Positions 4,221-49,723 of a stretch of 50,712 nucleotides of DNA are shown in pieces. This stretch comes from an uncultured Gammaproteobacteria bacterium (GTDB taxonomy: Bacteria > Patescibacteriota > Patescibacteriia > UBA9934): NCBI GenBank assembly GCA_964462325.1, contig CAYWYQ010000004.1, forward strand, positions 1-50,712, given 5' to 3'. The position numbers were made by a program, and so were the translations under genes. Positions within the stretch are counted from its first letter, which is position 1, and the number at the start of each line of letters is the position of its first letter. The notes beneath the pieces were generated by a model that saw only the letters and a program-made list of their open reading frames with translations, did not search any database and had not been told where the DNA came from.

Positions 4221-4338
4221 GGCTAGGAAGATTCGATGAATTGTTAGAGAAAAATGAATGACGAAGCGAGGCATACTTGAAAGGTATGTTGAGTGAGGAA
4301 TGATATTTTTCTACTGACAAGGCGCGAATCTAACAGCC
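4221..4338 (-). repeat. GTAC-hairpin foldback element (CATAC/GTATG variant)
   Basis: Minus strand ggctgttagattcg...ctcaacATACctttcaaGTATgcctcg...cgaatcttcctagcc with paired ends. Confidence 0.65.
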
Positions 4339-4349
4339 GAATATTGTTT

Positions 4350-4580
4350 ATGGATATTGAAGCAGCACGTTTACTAGCCGCCGGCCTTTGTATGGGTCTA
4401 GGGGCTATTGGTCCGGGAATTGGTGAAGGTATTGTGGCAGGTCGCACACTTGAAGCGATTGGTCGGAACCCTTCAATGATGGGGAAATTATTCCCTAATA
4501 TGATTGTTGCAATGGCTATTACTGAGTCAACAGCGATCTACTCTTTGGTTATCGCTCTTATTATTCTTTTCGTAGCATAG
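4350..4580 (+). CDS. atpE: ATP synthase F0 subunit c with Na+-binding signature
   Basis: Start at MDIEAAR; GPGIGEG, RNP loop and ESTAIY motifs. Confidence 0.96.
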
Positions 4581-4586
4581 TTTTCT

Positions 4587-5084
4587 ATGGATGCTCTCGC
4601 AAATCTCGGAATTGATGGTTGGAGCATAGTGCTTTACTTGGTGAACTTTGGTGTCATCCTTTTTGTGCTACATAAATGGGTGTATACACCTCTTTTGAAG
4701 GTCATTGATGAACGGCGTGAACAGATTCGGAAAAATGTAAATGAGGCAGAAATGCTGCGAAAAAATTTCGAAGATGTTGCCGCAAAGCAGAAAGAAGAAA
4801 ATGAAGCATATATTGCGGAAAATAAAGCAAAGATTGCCGAGGCTCAAAAATTTGCCAAGCAAGGAGCGCGAGAAATCATTGCCGACGCTGACGCAAGACG
4901 TGAAGCAATGCTTGCAGAAACAATGGCGCAGGTAGAAGTGCTTAAATCTGGAGTCATTGAAGGTGCTGAATCAGAAATGAAAGATCGAATTAAAAAAATT
5001 GTTCTTCATGTTTTGCAGAATACCGTGCCTGAAAAAGCGGTAAAGCAGAGCGTAGAAGATGCAGTAAAGGTTGTTGCAAAATAG
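4587..5084 (+). CDS. atpF: ATP synthase F0 subunit b
   Basis: N-terminal TM VNFxxI...YxPL..ERR followed by a coiled coil; operon position. Confidence 0.92.
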   Translation: MDALANLGIDGWSIVLYLVNFGVILFVLHKWVYTPLLKVIDERREQIRKNVNEAEMLRKNFEDVAAKQKEENEAYIAENKAKIAEAQKFAKQGAREIIADADARREAMLAETMAQVEVLKSGVIEGAESEMKDRIKKIVLHVLQNTVPEKAVKQSVEDAVKVVAK

Positions 5085-5086
5085 AT

Positions 5087-5722
5087 ATGATCACCGACAT
5101 ACTTGGAGCAATTCTTTTTGATAGCGCAACAGTCGCAAATGTGGACGATTTCTTTTCAAAGAAAGCGCGCATGCGTAGTTCGCTCATCAAAGAACAGCTT
5201 GGGACATATCCACGTCCACTTCTTGCGTATCTTGAAACCGTTTCAAAAGAACAGTTTACACAAGATGCAAGCATCCTTTTGCCTATCGTGAGTGCAAAAG
5301 TTTCGATTATGTCGGATGGTGCGGCGGTTATGGGGAATAAACTCGTGAAAGCATTCATAGCATTTTTAAAGAATGATCTTGTGAAGATGGATACGAATGG
5401 AAATACGATGCTTCATAAAACGCTGAAAGGATTTGAAGGAGAAGGTATGTCAGGGAAGATGCTGAAACGAATACTAATTCGTGAAGCTCAGTCAGTACTT
5501 CTGCATGTAGAAGGAGAAGAATCTGCAACCGTTCAACTTGCAACAGATTTGAGCGAAACAAAATTAGCAGCATTAACCGAAACACTTTCTGAGCAAGGAG
5601 GAATTCCGCAGTTTATTATCAATGAAGAACTCATTGGGGGAATGCGACTCTTTAAATCAGGTACATTGCGGGACGCAAGTTGGCGTGCACGCGTCAATAC
5701 ATTATTTAGTGCGATTGGGTAA
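5087..5722 (+). CDS. atpH: ATP synthase F1 delta subunit (divergent)
   Basis: Lies between atpF and atpA; C-terminal NEELIGGMRL...DAS motif. Confidence 0.75.
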   Translation: MITDILGAILFDSATVANVDDFFSKKARMRSSLIKEQLGTYPRPLLAYLETVSKEQFTQDASILLPIVSAKVSIMSDGAAVMGNKLVKAFIAFLKNDLVKMDTNGNTMLHKTLKGFEGEGMSGKMLKRILIREAQSVLLHVEGEESATVQLATDLSETKLAALTETLSEQGGIPQFIINEELIGGMRLFKSGTLRDASWRARVNTLFSAIG

Positions 5723-5730
5723 GTCGGAAA

Positions 5731-5760
5731 GTACTTACTACGAACTACTTACTACTTACT
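5731..5760 (+). repeat. CTA-phased heptamer tandem tract
   Basis: gtactta ctacgaa ctactta ctactta ct. Confidence 0.6.
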
Positions 5761-5775
5761 TTTGCAAATAGAAAT

Positions 5776-47997: not shown

Positions 47998-48130
47998 AAC
48001 CGTAGAAAGCGAGTTGCCTAAAAGCATAAGTCTCGTCGAGGTGTACAATCTACGCTGGATTCCTGCTTTCGCAGGAATGACAGGTGCGATTAAATGCAAT
48101 TCTCGGTTTCAACACCGGGATATTTTTTTA
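47998..48130 (+). promoter_or_regulatory. L10 leader RNA with a downstream attenuator-like hairpin
   Basis: aCCGTAGAaagCGAG ttgc..gca TAA gtCTCGtCGAGGt matches the L10-leader core; tctcggt..accggga + T-run at 48101-48129. Confidence 0.75.
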
Positions 48131-48239
48131 TCCCATCATTAATTCAAATGTTCTCATGTGTCATTTCGACTGAGTGCAGCGAATGGAGAAATCTACTAAG
48201 TAGATCCTTCGACTTGCCTGCGGCTCGCTCAGGATGACG
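48055..48239. repeat. REP-like elements inside the rplJ leader
   Basis: ctggattcctgctttcgcaggaatgaca (48055-48082) and a doublet at 48159-48239 sharing the atctactaagtagat core with 7372-7386. Confidence 0.8.
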
Positions 48240-48259
48240 ATGGGACAAAATGACTCTTT

Positions 48260-48781
48260 ATGGCAAAAACTCGAGAGCAAAAACAGCAAATCGTGGCTGG
48301 TCTTACGGACAAGTTCCAAAATATGACATCGGCAACATTCGCTGAAGTATCGGGGCTTACCATGTCTCAGTCGGATGAACTCCGTCAAAAAGCAAGAGAA
48401 TCAGGGGCAGAGGTCTTCATTGCGAAGAAAACACTCCTTAAGCTCGCTATTGAAGGTGCGAAGATTGAAAATATCGATCCAAAGCAGCTCAATGGTTCCG
48501 TTATTACGGCAATTGCAGATGACGAAGTTGCAGCAGCGAAGTTGATCAAAGACTTTTCAAAGTCAAATGACTCACTTACGATTTTAGCTGGAATCCTTGA
48601 AGGCAAGGGAATTAGTGCCGAAGAGGTGAATCAGCTTGCGGCTCTTCCTGGAAAGGAACAGTTATTTGGACAATTGGTTGGTACATTGAATGCTCCTATT
48701 TCAGGATTTGCAAATGTGCTTGCTGGTAATATCCGAGGATTGGTAACGGTCCTAGGAGCAATCCAAGAACAAAAAGCTTAG
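48260..48781 (+). CDS. rplJ: 50S ribosomal protein L10
   Basis: MAKTREQK, GLT.....LR, KKTL, LA.LP.KEQL..QL. Confidence 0.96.
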   Translation: MAKTREQKQQIVAGLTDKFQNMTSATFAEVSGLTMSQSDELRQKARESGAEVFIAKKTLLKLAIEGAKIENIDPKQLNGSVITAIADDEVAAAKLIKDFSKSNDSLTILAGILEGKGISAEEVNQLAALPGKEQLFGQLVGTLNAPISGFANVLAGNIRGLVTVLGAIQEQKA

Positions 48782-48900
48782 ACGTTCTATTTGGTCCATT
48801 TTCGGCTCACGGGTCCCTTATTTCTTCTCACCGTACGTTTCAGTACGCCTGCGAATAAACATTCCCGTTCATCAAAACTGCATCCAAATATATCCGTCTA
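48779..48900 (+). repeat. GTAC-hairpin foldback element starting at the rplJ stop codon
   Basis: TAGacgttctatttgg...CGTACgtttcaGTACGcctgcg...ccaaatatatccgtcta. Confidence 0.8.
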
Positions 48901-48984
48901 TAAGATGAGTATTCACTATCTAAACTATAACGAACAGCTTATTTCTAATAGCTAAACGCTAAAAGCTAGTTAAAACATAAATAT

Positions 48985-49425
48985 ATGTCAGAAGAAACAA
49001 AGACAGCAGAAGTTGCTGAAACAAAAGAGGAAACTTCAGCAGAAGTTCCTGCTAAGTTCGAAAAAATCGTTGCAGAAATTGAAACAATGTCTGTAATCGA
49101 TCTATCAGAATTGGTAAAGGTTCTAGAAGATAAGTTCGGAGTAAGCGCTGCTGCTCCTGCAATGATGATGGCTGCACCAGCCGGTGGAGCTGCAGAGGGT
49201 GGAGCAGAAGAGCAAACATCATTTGATGTAGAACTTACAGAAGTTGGAGGTTCTAAAATCAATGTAATTAAAGCTGTTCGAACTATAACTGGTGAAGGTT
49301 TGAAGGAAGCGAAGGGAATGGTTGACGGAGCGCCAACAGTTGTAAAGGCTGGAGCTTCTAAGGAAGAAGCTGAGGAGCTGAAGAAACAGTTGGAAGAAGC
49401 TGGAGCAACAGTAACTCTAAAATAG
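48985..49425 (+). CDS. rplL: 50S ribosomal protein L7/L12
   Basis: [35 protein letters not shown]. Confidence 0.97.
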
Positions 49426-49559
49426 TCCTTCACTTGAAAATGAGCGCATTGCGCACTCAGGTCTATGGTCCTCGCTCCATGTACCAATCAGTACACTCCG
49501 CTACGGTCCTCGATCTTCGCGCACACTGCATCTCATTTTCTGCATGAATCAACTATTTT
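49419..49559 (+). repeat. GTAC-hairpin foldback element overlapping the rplL stop codon
   Basis: aaaaTAGt..ttcacttgaaaatgag...TGTACcaatcaGTACActccg...ctcattttctgcatgaa..actatttt. Confidence 0.8.
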
Positions 49560-49640
49560 ATAGTGAGGTGTTTTGTTAAATATCCTCATTGCATGATTCA
49601 GTTCTGAAACTTTATTCACGAATAGCCCAATCGGGCTATT

Positions 49641-49723
49641 TTGTGTATCCTGCTATTTTCATTCATCGTACTTTTCCAGTACGTCTGCGGTACAGGCTAG
49701 AATTTCACTGATATCTAACGCAA
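49641..49723 (+). repeat. Degenerate GTAC-hairpin element
   Basis: CGTACttttccaGTACGtctgcgg with weak arms. Confidence 0.5.

Follow-up and report, generated by a model that had tools for sequence, protein, structure and literature searches.

ERIC, Correia/NEMIS, and RUP sequences are MITE-like imperfect foldbacks of ∼100 to 160 bp that lie in transcribed intergenic regions, are patchily distributed, and occasionally supply the stop codon of the upstream gene. IS608 and ISDra2 have hairpin ends, make no target duplication, insert with the left end next to the target, and show an orientation bias with respect to replication; IS608 and REP/RAYT are the comparison systems for single-strand HUH transposition. 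The attC sites of integrons are structure-defined imperfect palindromes of 57 to 141 nt with asymmetric bulges; one strand is active, folded as a single strand, and the site stands directly after an ORF and is co-oriented with it. The genomes of Patescibacteria are among the smallest and most streamlined in bacteria and are thought to be almost free of transposons. REP sequences are short palindromes of 20 to 40 nt with a GTAG or CGTC tag, and a REPIN is formed by two inverted REPs (PMC3733652). Full-text searches of the literature returned no description of repeats of this kind from Patescibacteria (Parcubacteria, Uhrbacteria, and CPR included).

The window, that is, the whole stretch of 50,712 nt analyzed here, holds nine full copies, two partial copies, and one doubtful copy of a ∼120-nt foldback repeat (Table 1). 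An earlier note on this DNA had proposed a family of foldback elements, and the family is real: a covariance model recovers it, and GTAC-N5-9-GTAC occurs 15 times in the window versus 0.95 expected, a count that none of 100 shuffles reached. Among the 11 copies listed in that note, nine have E values of ≤1.2e-5 with covariance model R1 (24 full copies as the seed; the window was searched with filters off) and a tenth is partial, but the copy next to tRNA-Lys is not significant with R2, the general, multigenus model of the family. This doubtful copy has apical GTAC-N-GTAC motifs, and its position and orientation match those of tRNA-flanking copies in other genomes. The 5' fragment was not in the list. 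In the 782-kb source genome (G000), the repeat gives 71 covariance model matches and 84 nhmmer matches, corresponding to ∼70 copies, and ∼1% of the genome is this single family. A further part of the intergenic DNA of this genome is a mosaic of other repeats.

TABLE 1 Copies of the foldback repeat in the window, with model scores and neighboring genes
Feature	Positions	Strand	Score	Setting
Diverged full copy	4218..4340	-	R1 37.6 bits, E 1.8e-7; R2 71 bits	In the spacer separating atpB (3326-4108) from the atp genes that follow, on the strand opposite the operon; Pfam ATP-synt_A and ATP-synt_B in the flanking ORFs
Canonical full copy	9765..9886	+	R1 106.3 bits	atpD frame enters the copy and ends within it at TGA (9771-9773)
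5' fragment, model positions 1-45	14316..14362	+	nhmmer E 1.7e-4; R1 weak, 12.3 bits, E 0.5	Directly after the stop of ORF 12555-14315
Diverged copy, first of pair	15887..16005	+	R1 30.5 bits, E 1.2e-5; R2 41.6 bits	5' end adjoins the start of opposite-strand rpmA (Ribosomal_L27)
Diverged copy, second of pair	16017..16137	+	R1 57.8 bits; R2 83.7 bits	
Doubtful degenerate copy	20650..20773	-	R2 12.1 bits, E 0.98, not significant	Abuts the 5' end of tRNA-Lys (20774-20849, +)
Diverged copy	28789..28909	-	R1 46.1 bits	3 nt downstream of tRNA-Thr (28913-28988, -; ARAGORN), same orientation
Canonical copy, first of tandem pair	32149..32271	+	R1 120.2 bits	Begins 4 nt past the stop of ORF 30663-32144
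Canonical copy, second of tandem pair	32273..32414	+	R1 108.1 bits	Nested perfect palindrome of 20 nt at 32321-32340
Copy at rplJ stop	48779..48901	+	R1 67.4 bits	rplJ stop TAG is the first three bases
Canonical-type copy after rplL (Ribosomal_L12)	49429..49549	+	R1 103 bits	rplL stop TAG precedes the model match by 3 nt and falls within the outer stem
Partial degenerate copy	49620..49737	+	R1 (49635-49715) 18.7 bits, E 0.012; R2 22.8 bits, E 1e-3	

Each unit is one long imperfect hairpin. Its base is conserved, with a CCGC/GCGG clamp over an asymmetric internal loop, and the bulge of CTTGAAAA opposite TTTTCTGYR, noticed before in three copies, is this conserved base of the canonical ∼120-nt unit. 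A second conserved internal loop sets TCA opposite CTGC, the middle helices are variable, and the apex is a stem of 5 to 6 bp, usually on GTAC, that closes a loop of 4 to 7 nt. The covariation claimed for the stems is borne out by RNAalifold, which finds double changes at 25 of 33 pairs; 94.2% of the cells are paired, compared with 72.6% in shuffles (0/500 reach the observed value) and 35 to 42% when the partners are slid. In other classes of the phylum, the apical stem covaries from GTAC to GTAG/CTAC and to GTAA/TTAC. The family had been called structure conserved and sequence divergent; the fold is indeed kept, but the young copies share a clear consensus, with 64% mean column identity. The suggestion that structure is selected for a single-stranded DNA (ssDNA) or mRNA role agrees with pairing kept by compensatory change, although the REPIN/RAYT and attC versions of it do not hold.

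One-sided changes of the G-U type affect 12 cells versus 181 cells with double changes, and G:U and A:C occur at similar frequencies at consensus pairs (76 versus 106), so Watson-Crick complementarity of DNA fits better than a typical RNA. A strand test based on G:U versus A:C gave conflicting answers according to the consensus used. On the other hand, the purine-rich strand has two conserved U.G wobble positions (33/40 and 14/40) and folds ∼10 kcal/mol better as RNA, features that an RNA could explain. The earlier note could not assign the element to a named family, and this stands: at gathering thresholds, Rfam 15 matched only the two tRNAs in the window, and six of the 24 copies in the alignment, scanned at permissive settings, gave only E values of >3.

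The placement of the repeat is polar. With genes called by a longest-ORF heuristic, 28 of the 47 arrays of the source genome have their 5' end at most 10 nt away from a stop codon, the T-run of a terminator, or the end of a tRNA gene, compared with 2.4 expected under uniform placement in each array's own spacer; for the 3' end, the count is 0 of 47, again versus 2.4 expected. In G002, a near-complete congener, 12/25 arrays follow a co-oriented gene at ≤10 nt, and only a single array is this near to a gene with its 3' end. Of seven copies from other classes of the phylum, six begin between −8 and +4 nt relative to the stop codon of an ORF in the same orientation. In the window, the previously reported overlaps with the stop codons of atpD, rplJ, and rplL and the two junctions with tRNA genes (that with tRNA-Lys at the doubtful copy) were all recovered, although in the case of rplL the stop falls in the outer stem just ahead of the model match. 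At tRNA genes, mirrored copies are separated from the 5' end by 1 to 10 nt (11/21 and 12/30 matches in two surveys) and directly oriented copies from the 3' end by 3 to 9 nt, and the same tRNA species are flanked in several genera, e.g., tRNA-Ile in G000, G002, G017, G028, G037, and G040. The sequence before the element follows only a TA(A/G)G(R)CA tendency, with variable spacing and no fixed word at the tRNA-side junctions: TAAG or TAGG precedes 10 of 19 gene-adjacent arrays in G000, as read by eye, versus 81/555 genome-wide, and 11 of the 12 adjacent stops in G002 are TAG. Tandem units occur without ORFs between them.

Some copies begin 4 to 11 nt after terminator stems, and several stand directly behind a canonical terminator. 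A run of four or more T residues ≤15 nt past the 3' end accompanies just 5 of 68 copies, indicating that these are not ordinary terminators; on both grounds, the intrinsic (Rho-independent) terminator was rejected.

Both orientations occur in the window, as described before. The leading-strand polarity of GC skew is followed by 24/27 copies in G002 and 41/52 arrays in G000, with orientation relative to replication and to the neighboring gene being confounded (11 versus 5 where they disagree). Target duplications, which the earlier note had not seen, were also absent at more than 60 junctions that we inspected, and none emerged from a flank-folding search, which was noisy.

A scan of CPR genomes found the family in 27 of 41 relatives, in 13 of the 151 genomes covered from the class, and in 4 genomes that belong to other classes of the phylum. 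Its distribution among congeners is patchy: R1 gives 66, 30, 11, 0, 0, and 0 copies in six of them, and R2 adds one match in G004 and none in G001 and G005. Both filled and empty orthologous sites were found. Among 27 element-bearing intergenic sites of G000 that could be mapped in G002, 19 have no nhmmer match there, and nine of those 19 spacers measure only 11 to 124 nt; the atpD-atpC spacer, for example, is 13 nt and empty. Reverse cases, filled in G002 and empty in G000, also exist. At the rplJ-rplL site, G000 and G002 carry the element, and the site is empty in G001, G003, G004, and G005. Thus, copies come and go between closely related genomes, by insertion or loss. Assembled contigs of four DNA runs over 30200 to 50100 break at elements or join other copies, and no clean empty-site joint was present among them; the rplJ and rplL copies are spanned unchanged by two contigs of 2,994 nt.

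The best explanation of the window copies is a family of ∼120-bp nonautonomous foldback elements of Patescibacteria. In its specific form, to which we assign a probability of roughly 45%, the repeat is an orphan, strand-specific hairpin mobile element that is passively read through in 3' UTRs. Polar placement, replication-linked orientation, and insertion polymorphism favor DNA over an mRNA signal. The element would move as a folded single strand of DNA and insert in a polar manner, with the 5' end of its pyrimidine-rich strand always landing a few bases 3' of a gene end, where gene ends comprise stop codons, the T-runs of terminators, and both ends of tRNA genes. The pyrimidine-rich strand would take leading-strand polarity, so that its sequence would be that of the lagging-strand template. 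The hairpin may be kept because a mobilizing or recognizing factor reads the structure and a few loop bases, and templated correction between the two arms may contribute. Most copies would merely be read through within the 3' UTR of the upstream gene, and any stabilizing or processing effect on RNA would probably be secondary.

We consider it possible, but rather unlikely, that the repeat is instead a selected cis-acting RNA. Copies located directly past stop codons and tRNA 3' ends would serve as 3'-UTR hairpins, with the role of a 3'-end protector, a processing site, or a noncanonical terminator; mirrored copies would form a structured leader that lies ∼7 nt upstream of tRNA genes and is released by RNase P. 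Such an element would have spread by duplication and been kept by selection on the RNA fold. Its position directly after stop codons in three or more classes and its fixed spacing of 1 to 10 nt to tRNA 5' ends, which recurs at the same tRNA species across genera, speak for this reading, and the conserved purine-rich internal loops and U.G wobbles lie on the strand co-transcribed with downstream tRNAs. The rplJ-rplL copy is identical to its G002 counterpart at 115 of 123 positions, more than its flanks (48/60, and 34/60 downstream), and in the tRNA-Phe/tRNA-Ile spacer shared by the two genomes the fold is kept, although the sequence barely aligns. This turnover under a constant fold and the recurrence at the same tRNA species look like selection in place rather than recent movement. 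However, the element is absent or undetectable with R2 in the close relatives G001, G005, and G013, and many orthologous sites are empty, indicating that it is dispensable. From one placement class to the other, the strand that enters RNA is reversed, some copies are located past a canonical terminator, where little transcription is expected, and G-U intermediates, T-runs, and Rfam matches are scarce or lacking, as detailed above.

A bolder proposal, which we hold with considerable doubt, is that a phylum-wide, structure-defined element homing strand-specifically 3' of gene ends without a recognizable transposase represents either a new ssDNA mobilization, by a host or other enzyme, or a dual-use module whose purine-strand leader RNA would be released ∼7 nt upstream of tRNAs.

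The search for a partner enzyme makes it improbable that the copies are REPIN-like units mobilized in trans by the RAYT-like or IS200-like Y1 (HUH) transposases of the genome. The foldback shape, missing target duplication, replication bias, and one-sided junction do resemble HUH ssDNA transposition, and there are two Y1_Tnp genes in G000 (contigs C8 and C10) and one in G002. However, the two RAYT-like genes of G000 have flanking repeats of their own that differ from the foldback element, and one of these repeats is present in 94 copies in G000 but in none in the 764 kb of G002 examined, whereas the foldback repeat is present in both genomes; neither nhmmer nor the covariance model found foldback copies on C8 and C10. 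A co-occurring HUH/Y1 gene, raised in the earlier note, shows no association with the element among the 41 relatives (20/27 element-bearing genomes versus 9/14 without it), and G011, G017, and G037, which are 100% complete and have 13 to 16 copies, lack a Y1 match. Four IS200-like loci (in G002, G010, G018, and G025) have different hairpins at their flanks, and nhmmer detects no similarity between these loci and the element up to an E value of 10. The GTAG or CGTC tag is missing.

Still less probable is that the conserved apex and base form a duplex or cruciform site for binding or recombination by a host protein, such as a Xer-like recombinase or a nucleoid protein, with the long palindrome as a by-product. 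At the apex, the two arms of an imperfect palindrome of ∼30 bp enclose a 6-nt spacer, a Xer-like tyrosine recombinase is present in 40/41 relatives, usually one per genome, and no further family of recombinases or transposases follows the distribution of the element. Yet G001, G005, and G013 have this recombinase without the element, tyrosine recombinase counts, another check raised earlier, show no relation to element counts across the 41 relatives, and the covarying apical stem speaks for pairing and against a fixed duplex sequence; nor does this reading account for the strong covariation of the long arms.

Other candidates were dismissed: a classical DDE MITE (no target duplication; DDE_3, DDE_Tnp_1, and rve, like TnpB, IS110, and RVT_1, each in 0/5 element-rich genomes), GTAC as a restriction avoidance signal (not depleted, observed/expected 1.00), a promoter with TTGAAA at the 5' end or the 3' arm upstream of tRNAs (no conserved −10/−35 at workable spacing, by eye), a hammerhead or box C/D-like purine-rich strand (a resemblance unsupported by Rfam), and a viral link (one chance match in a pattern scan of a viral collection, inside an RNA virus polymerase-like ORF).

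What emerges is a fold-defined family that spans several classes and sits at gene ends with near base-level precision, for which no partner enzyme was found. If mobile, it points to an unrecognized route of mobilization in organisms thought to have almost no transposons; as an RNA signal, it would fill a gap in the account of how Patescibacteria finish messages and tRNA precursors. The element explains contig breaks in such assemblies, and it alters C-terminal residues and stop codons of core genes.

The repeat shares with attC sites a structure-defined imperfect palindrome with asymmetric bulges, co-oriented directly after an ORF, and the earlier note had drawn this parallel. The likeness ends at the flanks, which are core genes in conserved synteny (atp operon, rplJ, rplL, and tRNAs) rather than cassettes; tandem units have no intervening ORFs, no additional, integron-type integrase tracks the element, and its ends do not resemble the R-box consensus. 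With IS200/IS605 ends and the miniature PATEs, it has in common the hairpin, the missing target duplication, the left-end-next-to-target geometry, and the replication bias. Unlike with IS200/IS605, element-rich genomes may lack a Y1 match, and the hairpins on IS200-like copies of the relatives are unrelated. As for a tetra- or pentanucleotide target, the junctions showed the TA(A/G)G(R)CA tendency and no fixed word.

Like REP/BIME/REPIN sequences with their RAYTs in enterobacteria and Pseudomonas, the repeat has many palindromic intergenic copies, often just past stop codons, forms mosaic arrays with other repeat types, breaks assemblies, and is supposed to move as a folded single strand. It differs in being a single ∼120-nt hairpin without the REP tags that neither flanks RAYT-like genes nor follows Y1 genes across genomes. 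A genuine REP-RAYT pair also exists in the source genome, separate from the foldback element. Compared by general properties, ERIC, Correia/NEMIS, and RUP agree with it in size, foldback, location, stop codon supply, and patchiness. As judged from their descriptions, the repeat is set apart from them by having no terminal duplication, related IS, or DDE transposase, and by being polar at gene ends, oriented with replication, phylum spanning, and conserved in structure more than in sequence.

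The fold of the element is kept while its sequence changes, as the earlier note had claimed; this holds because of compensatory changes, shuffle and slide results, and covariation of the apical stem in other classes. The unit is ∼120 nt long, with a conserved base made of TCCGC, TTG, and an A/T-rich stem on one side and the complementary stem, CTGC, and GCGGA on the other; genome-wide, the apical motif stands in the conserved context CTCA-yy-GTAC-loop-GTAC-rr-CTGCGG. RNAalifold run on 24 full copies gave 33 pairs, 25 of which carry double compensatory changes. On this structure, 94.2% of cells pair, versus 72.6% in column shuffles (0 of 500 shuffles as high), double-change cells number 181 versus 61 in shuffles, and sliding the partners by 1 to 3 columns lowers pairing to 35 to 42%. 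An opposite-strand alignment of 40 sequences from at least 14 genomes has compensatory changes in 28 of 33 pairs, and in other classes the apical GTAC stem becomes GTAG/CTAC or GTAA/TTAC. One-sided changes of the G-U type are scarce (12 cells versus 181 double changes). The strand that runs with the upstream genes is pyrimidine rich (C, 28%; T, 33%), and the purine-rich complement gives an RNA fold better by ∼10 kcal/mol in 88 of 91 copies. The ratio of G:U to A:C was 76 to 106 on the first structure and ∼80 to 22 on the purine-rich strand, where two conserved U.G positions dominate; both counts vary with the consensus chosen. A 20-nt perfect palindrome of the CCTGCC..GGCAGG type (window 32321-32340) is nested just 5' of one apical hairpin and recurs in at least four other copies in the same genome; the motif occurs eight times in congener G002.

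The source genome, of an organism present in marine samples, comprises 781,727 bp in 39 contigs at 41% G+C, the window being contig C4. Judged by the ATP synthase beta subunit, its nearest named relatives are MAGs of Patescibacteria, among them one labelled Candidatus Uhrbacteria with 82% identity. The window contains 15 GTAC-N5-9-GTAC motifs versus 0.95 expected. All eleven stretches listed earlier fold into long imperfect hairpins; with filters off, nine were recovered at E ≤ 1.2e-5 and one as a partial match, and the copy claimed at 20650-20773 was not significant. Across the genome, nhmmer found 84 element pieces, and R1, a covariance model built from the 24 copies, scored 150 of 422 candidates and gave at least 71 matches at E ≤ 0.01. 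The E-values of this model and of the more general, multigenus model R2 are rough. Many matches lie at contig ends, and the total of ∼8.6 kb makes up 1.1% of the genome. The earlier note could match the element to no named family, and no Rfam family matched here: at gathering scores, Rfam 15 found two tRNAs in the window and nothing for the element, and a permissive scan of six copies returned only chance matches (all E > 3).

With genes called by a crude longest-ORF heuristic and tRNAs by ARAGORN, the source genome has 55 arrays (42 single, 10 double, and 3 triple). A co-oriented gene lies on the 5' side in 38 of 52, at ≤10 nt from the gene end in 23. For any boundary, the 5' end falls within 10 nt in 28 of 47 arrays and the 3' end in none, versus 2.4 expected in each case if an array were placed uniformly inside its own spacer. 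Of 25 arrays in G002, 19 share the orientation of the gene, 12 lie at ≤10 nt, and a 3' end comes equally near in one. Among copies from other classes, 6 of 7 begin −8 to +4 nt from the stop codon of an ORF in the same orientation. Where a gene has a canonical terminator, the element begins 4 to 11 nt past the terminator stem. The preceding sequence tends to TA(A/G)G(R)CA, with junctions placed by eye from the flanks, and TAAG or TAGG, likewise read by eye, occurs at 10 of 19 gene-adjacent arrays in the source genome versus 81 of 555 ORFs genome-wide. Adjacent stops in G002 are TAG in 11 of 12 cases, with TAA at several corresponding empty sites in the source genome.

tRNA genes are the other common neighbor. 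Among the best matches in other genera, the 5' end of the element very frequently lies 1 to 10 nt from the 5' end of an opposite-strand tRNA gene (11 of 21 matches in 19 loci; in a second set, 12 of 30 best matches in five genomes, with five loci common to both sets). tRNA-Ile recurs in six genomes, and Pro, Val, Leu, Met, Thr, Arg, and Lys species are also found. The source genome has four such copies and a doubtful one at tRNA-Lys. Copies in direct orientation also occur 3 to 9 nt past tRNA 3' ends. In the tRNA-Phe/tRNA-Ile spacer of the source genome and G002, the tRNAs are near-identical and the elements barely align, yet both fold. Stated as one rule in its simplest form, the pyrimidine-rich strand has its 5' end a few bases 3' of a gene end that forms a stem-loop, on either strand.

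To follow gain and loss, flanking genes were mapped onto 764 kb of G002. Among 27 element-bearing spacers of the source genome with both flanks on one G002 contig, nhmmer found a match in G002 for 8, one of them doubtful with flanks 26.7 kb apart, and none for 19, nine of which correspond to G002 spacers just 11 to 124 nt long. Between atpD and atpC, G002 has a spacer of 13 nt; the source genome has an element there and then 420 nt of other repeats, and the atpD frame enters the element (window 9765-9773) and stops at its TGA, whereas G002 uses its own TAG. Another gene likewise ends at a TGA inside an element (C3:12677-12685), where the congener has its own TAG. A second gene pair nearly abuts in G002 and is separated by two elements in the source genome, the upstream protein having a new C terminus. 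At both places (9765-9773 and C3:12677-12685), element insertion has given a core gene new C-terminal residues and a new stop codon. The converse, a site filled in G002 and empty in the source genome, is present too. The rplJ-rplL copy is common to both genomes and missing from four congeners, with spacers of 20 to 31 nt there. Empty sites in relatives, which the earlier note had proposed to look for, occur both here and as the short G002 spacers. At several shared sites, the two copies differ mainly in both terminal arms, concertedly; insertion more than once, conversion, or rapid change with compensation could account for this.

Mosaics of other repeat families lie downstream of young copies. 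Besides the families in the table, window spacers contain GGTC-S-GACC palindromes (in many cases after a GTAG), GTCATTCCRG...CCGGAATGAC hairpins, GTCATTTCGAYCGA units, and runs that are either GTAGGGNGTAG or TAGC rich; the orthologous G002 spacers are 13 nt long or unrelated.

Coordinates of repeats in the window and around the two RAYT-like genes
Feature	Location	Coordinates	Remark
Element 5' fragment	window	14316-14362	
Spacers with other repeat families	window	9887-10306, 7297-7462, 32415-32700	first is atpD-atpC
GAGGTT-S-AACCTC repeat	window	14452-14478, 21169, 22564-22610, 32471-32600, 39316	
GAGGTT-S-AACCTC repeat	contig C8, locus L022	1304-1467, 2040-2110	both sides of RAYT-like Y1 gene
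Repeat of second RAYT-like gene	contig C10, locus L021	1137-1251, 1870-2000	ATCTCCGAGATAAAAC-type hairpins, ∼6 copies in genome

Orientation was compared with GC skew, which switches clearly on the two large G002 contigs, C1 (at ∼135 kb) and C2 (at ∼205 kb); the switch points are probably the origin and terminus. The pyrimidine-rich strand is in leading-strand polarity in 24 of 27 G002 copies; of the other three, two flank tRNA genes and one lies within the atp operon. In the source genome, 41 of 52 arrays follow the local skew. Orientation with the skew is confounded with gene direction (11 versus 5 where they disagree).

R1 finds the element in 27 of 41 relatives (source genome counted) and in 6 of 7 sampled families of the order. 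Within the genus, copy counts are 66, 30, and 11 versus 0, 0, and 0. R2 added one copy in congener G004 and two weak ones in relative G007, and gave zero copies in three further genomes (G001, G005, and G013). Of 151 genomes sampled at the class level, at least 13 gave a match with E ≤ 1e-5, and at the phylum level at least 6 of 151 matched, four of them in other classes; these are lower bounds because filters were strict and few candidates were scored.

The element is polymorphic for insertion and absent from close relatives, its junctions are polar and lack duplication, its orientation goes with replication, and Watson-Crick pairs dominate its covariation. On these grounds we read it, tentatively (probability about 0.45), as a strand-specific mobile hairpin, for which 3' UTRs would carry most copies. 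A selected RNA role is a less likely but live alternative, which has in its favor the same tRNAs carrying the element across genera, fixed spacing, conserved purine-rich loops and wobbles, and a well-conserved rplJ-rplL copy; the two readings are compatible, not exclusive. Ordinary terminators are ruled out, since a T-run follows just 5 of 68 copies.

As partner enzymes to look for, the earlier note had named a co-occurring HUH/Y1 or tyrosine recombinase flanked by the elements. The link to Y1 did not hold: the two RAYT-like Y1 genes of the source genome are each flanked by a repeat of their own, and Y1_Tnp does not track element presence in 41 genomes. The GAGGTT-S-AACCTC repeat, which flanks the C8 gene and has 94 copies in the source genome versus none in 764 kb of G002, is therefore the probable REP partner; gene and repeat would together make up a true REP-RAYT pair within the Patescibacteria. 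In four relatives, the IS200-like loci have no similarity to the element, and DDE_3, DDE_Tnp_1, rve, TnpB, IS110, and RVT_1 had no match in five element-rich genomes. The tyrosine recombinase found, Xer-like, is near-universal and unrelated to element copy number. The sole match to the apex pattern in a viral collection, on an IMG/VR contig (1,379 nt; 63% G+C), sits in a long ORF that carries a YGDD motif and looks like an RNA-virus polymerase; it is a chance match.

The membership tests run bore out neither the REPIN- or attC-like nature proposed in the earlier note nor membership in REP/BIME/REPIN, the IS200/IS605 derivatives, or attC sites. What the element shares with all of these, and with ERIC- or Correia-type repeats, is their general behavior.
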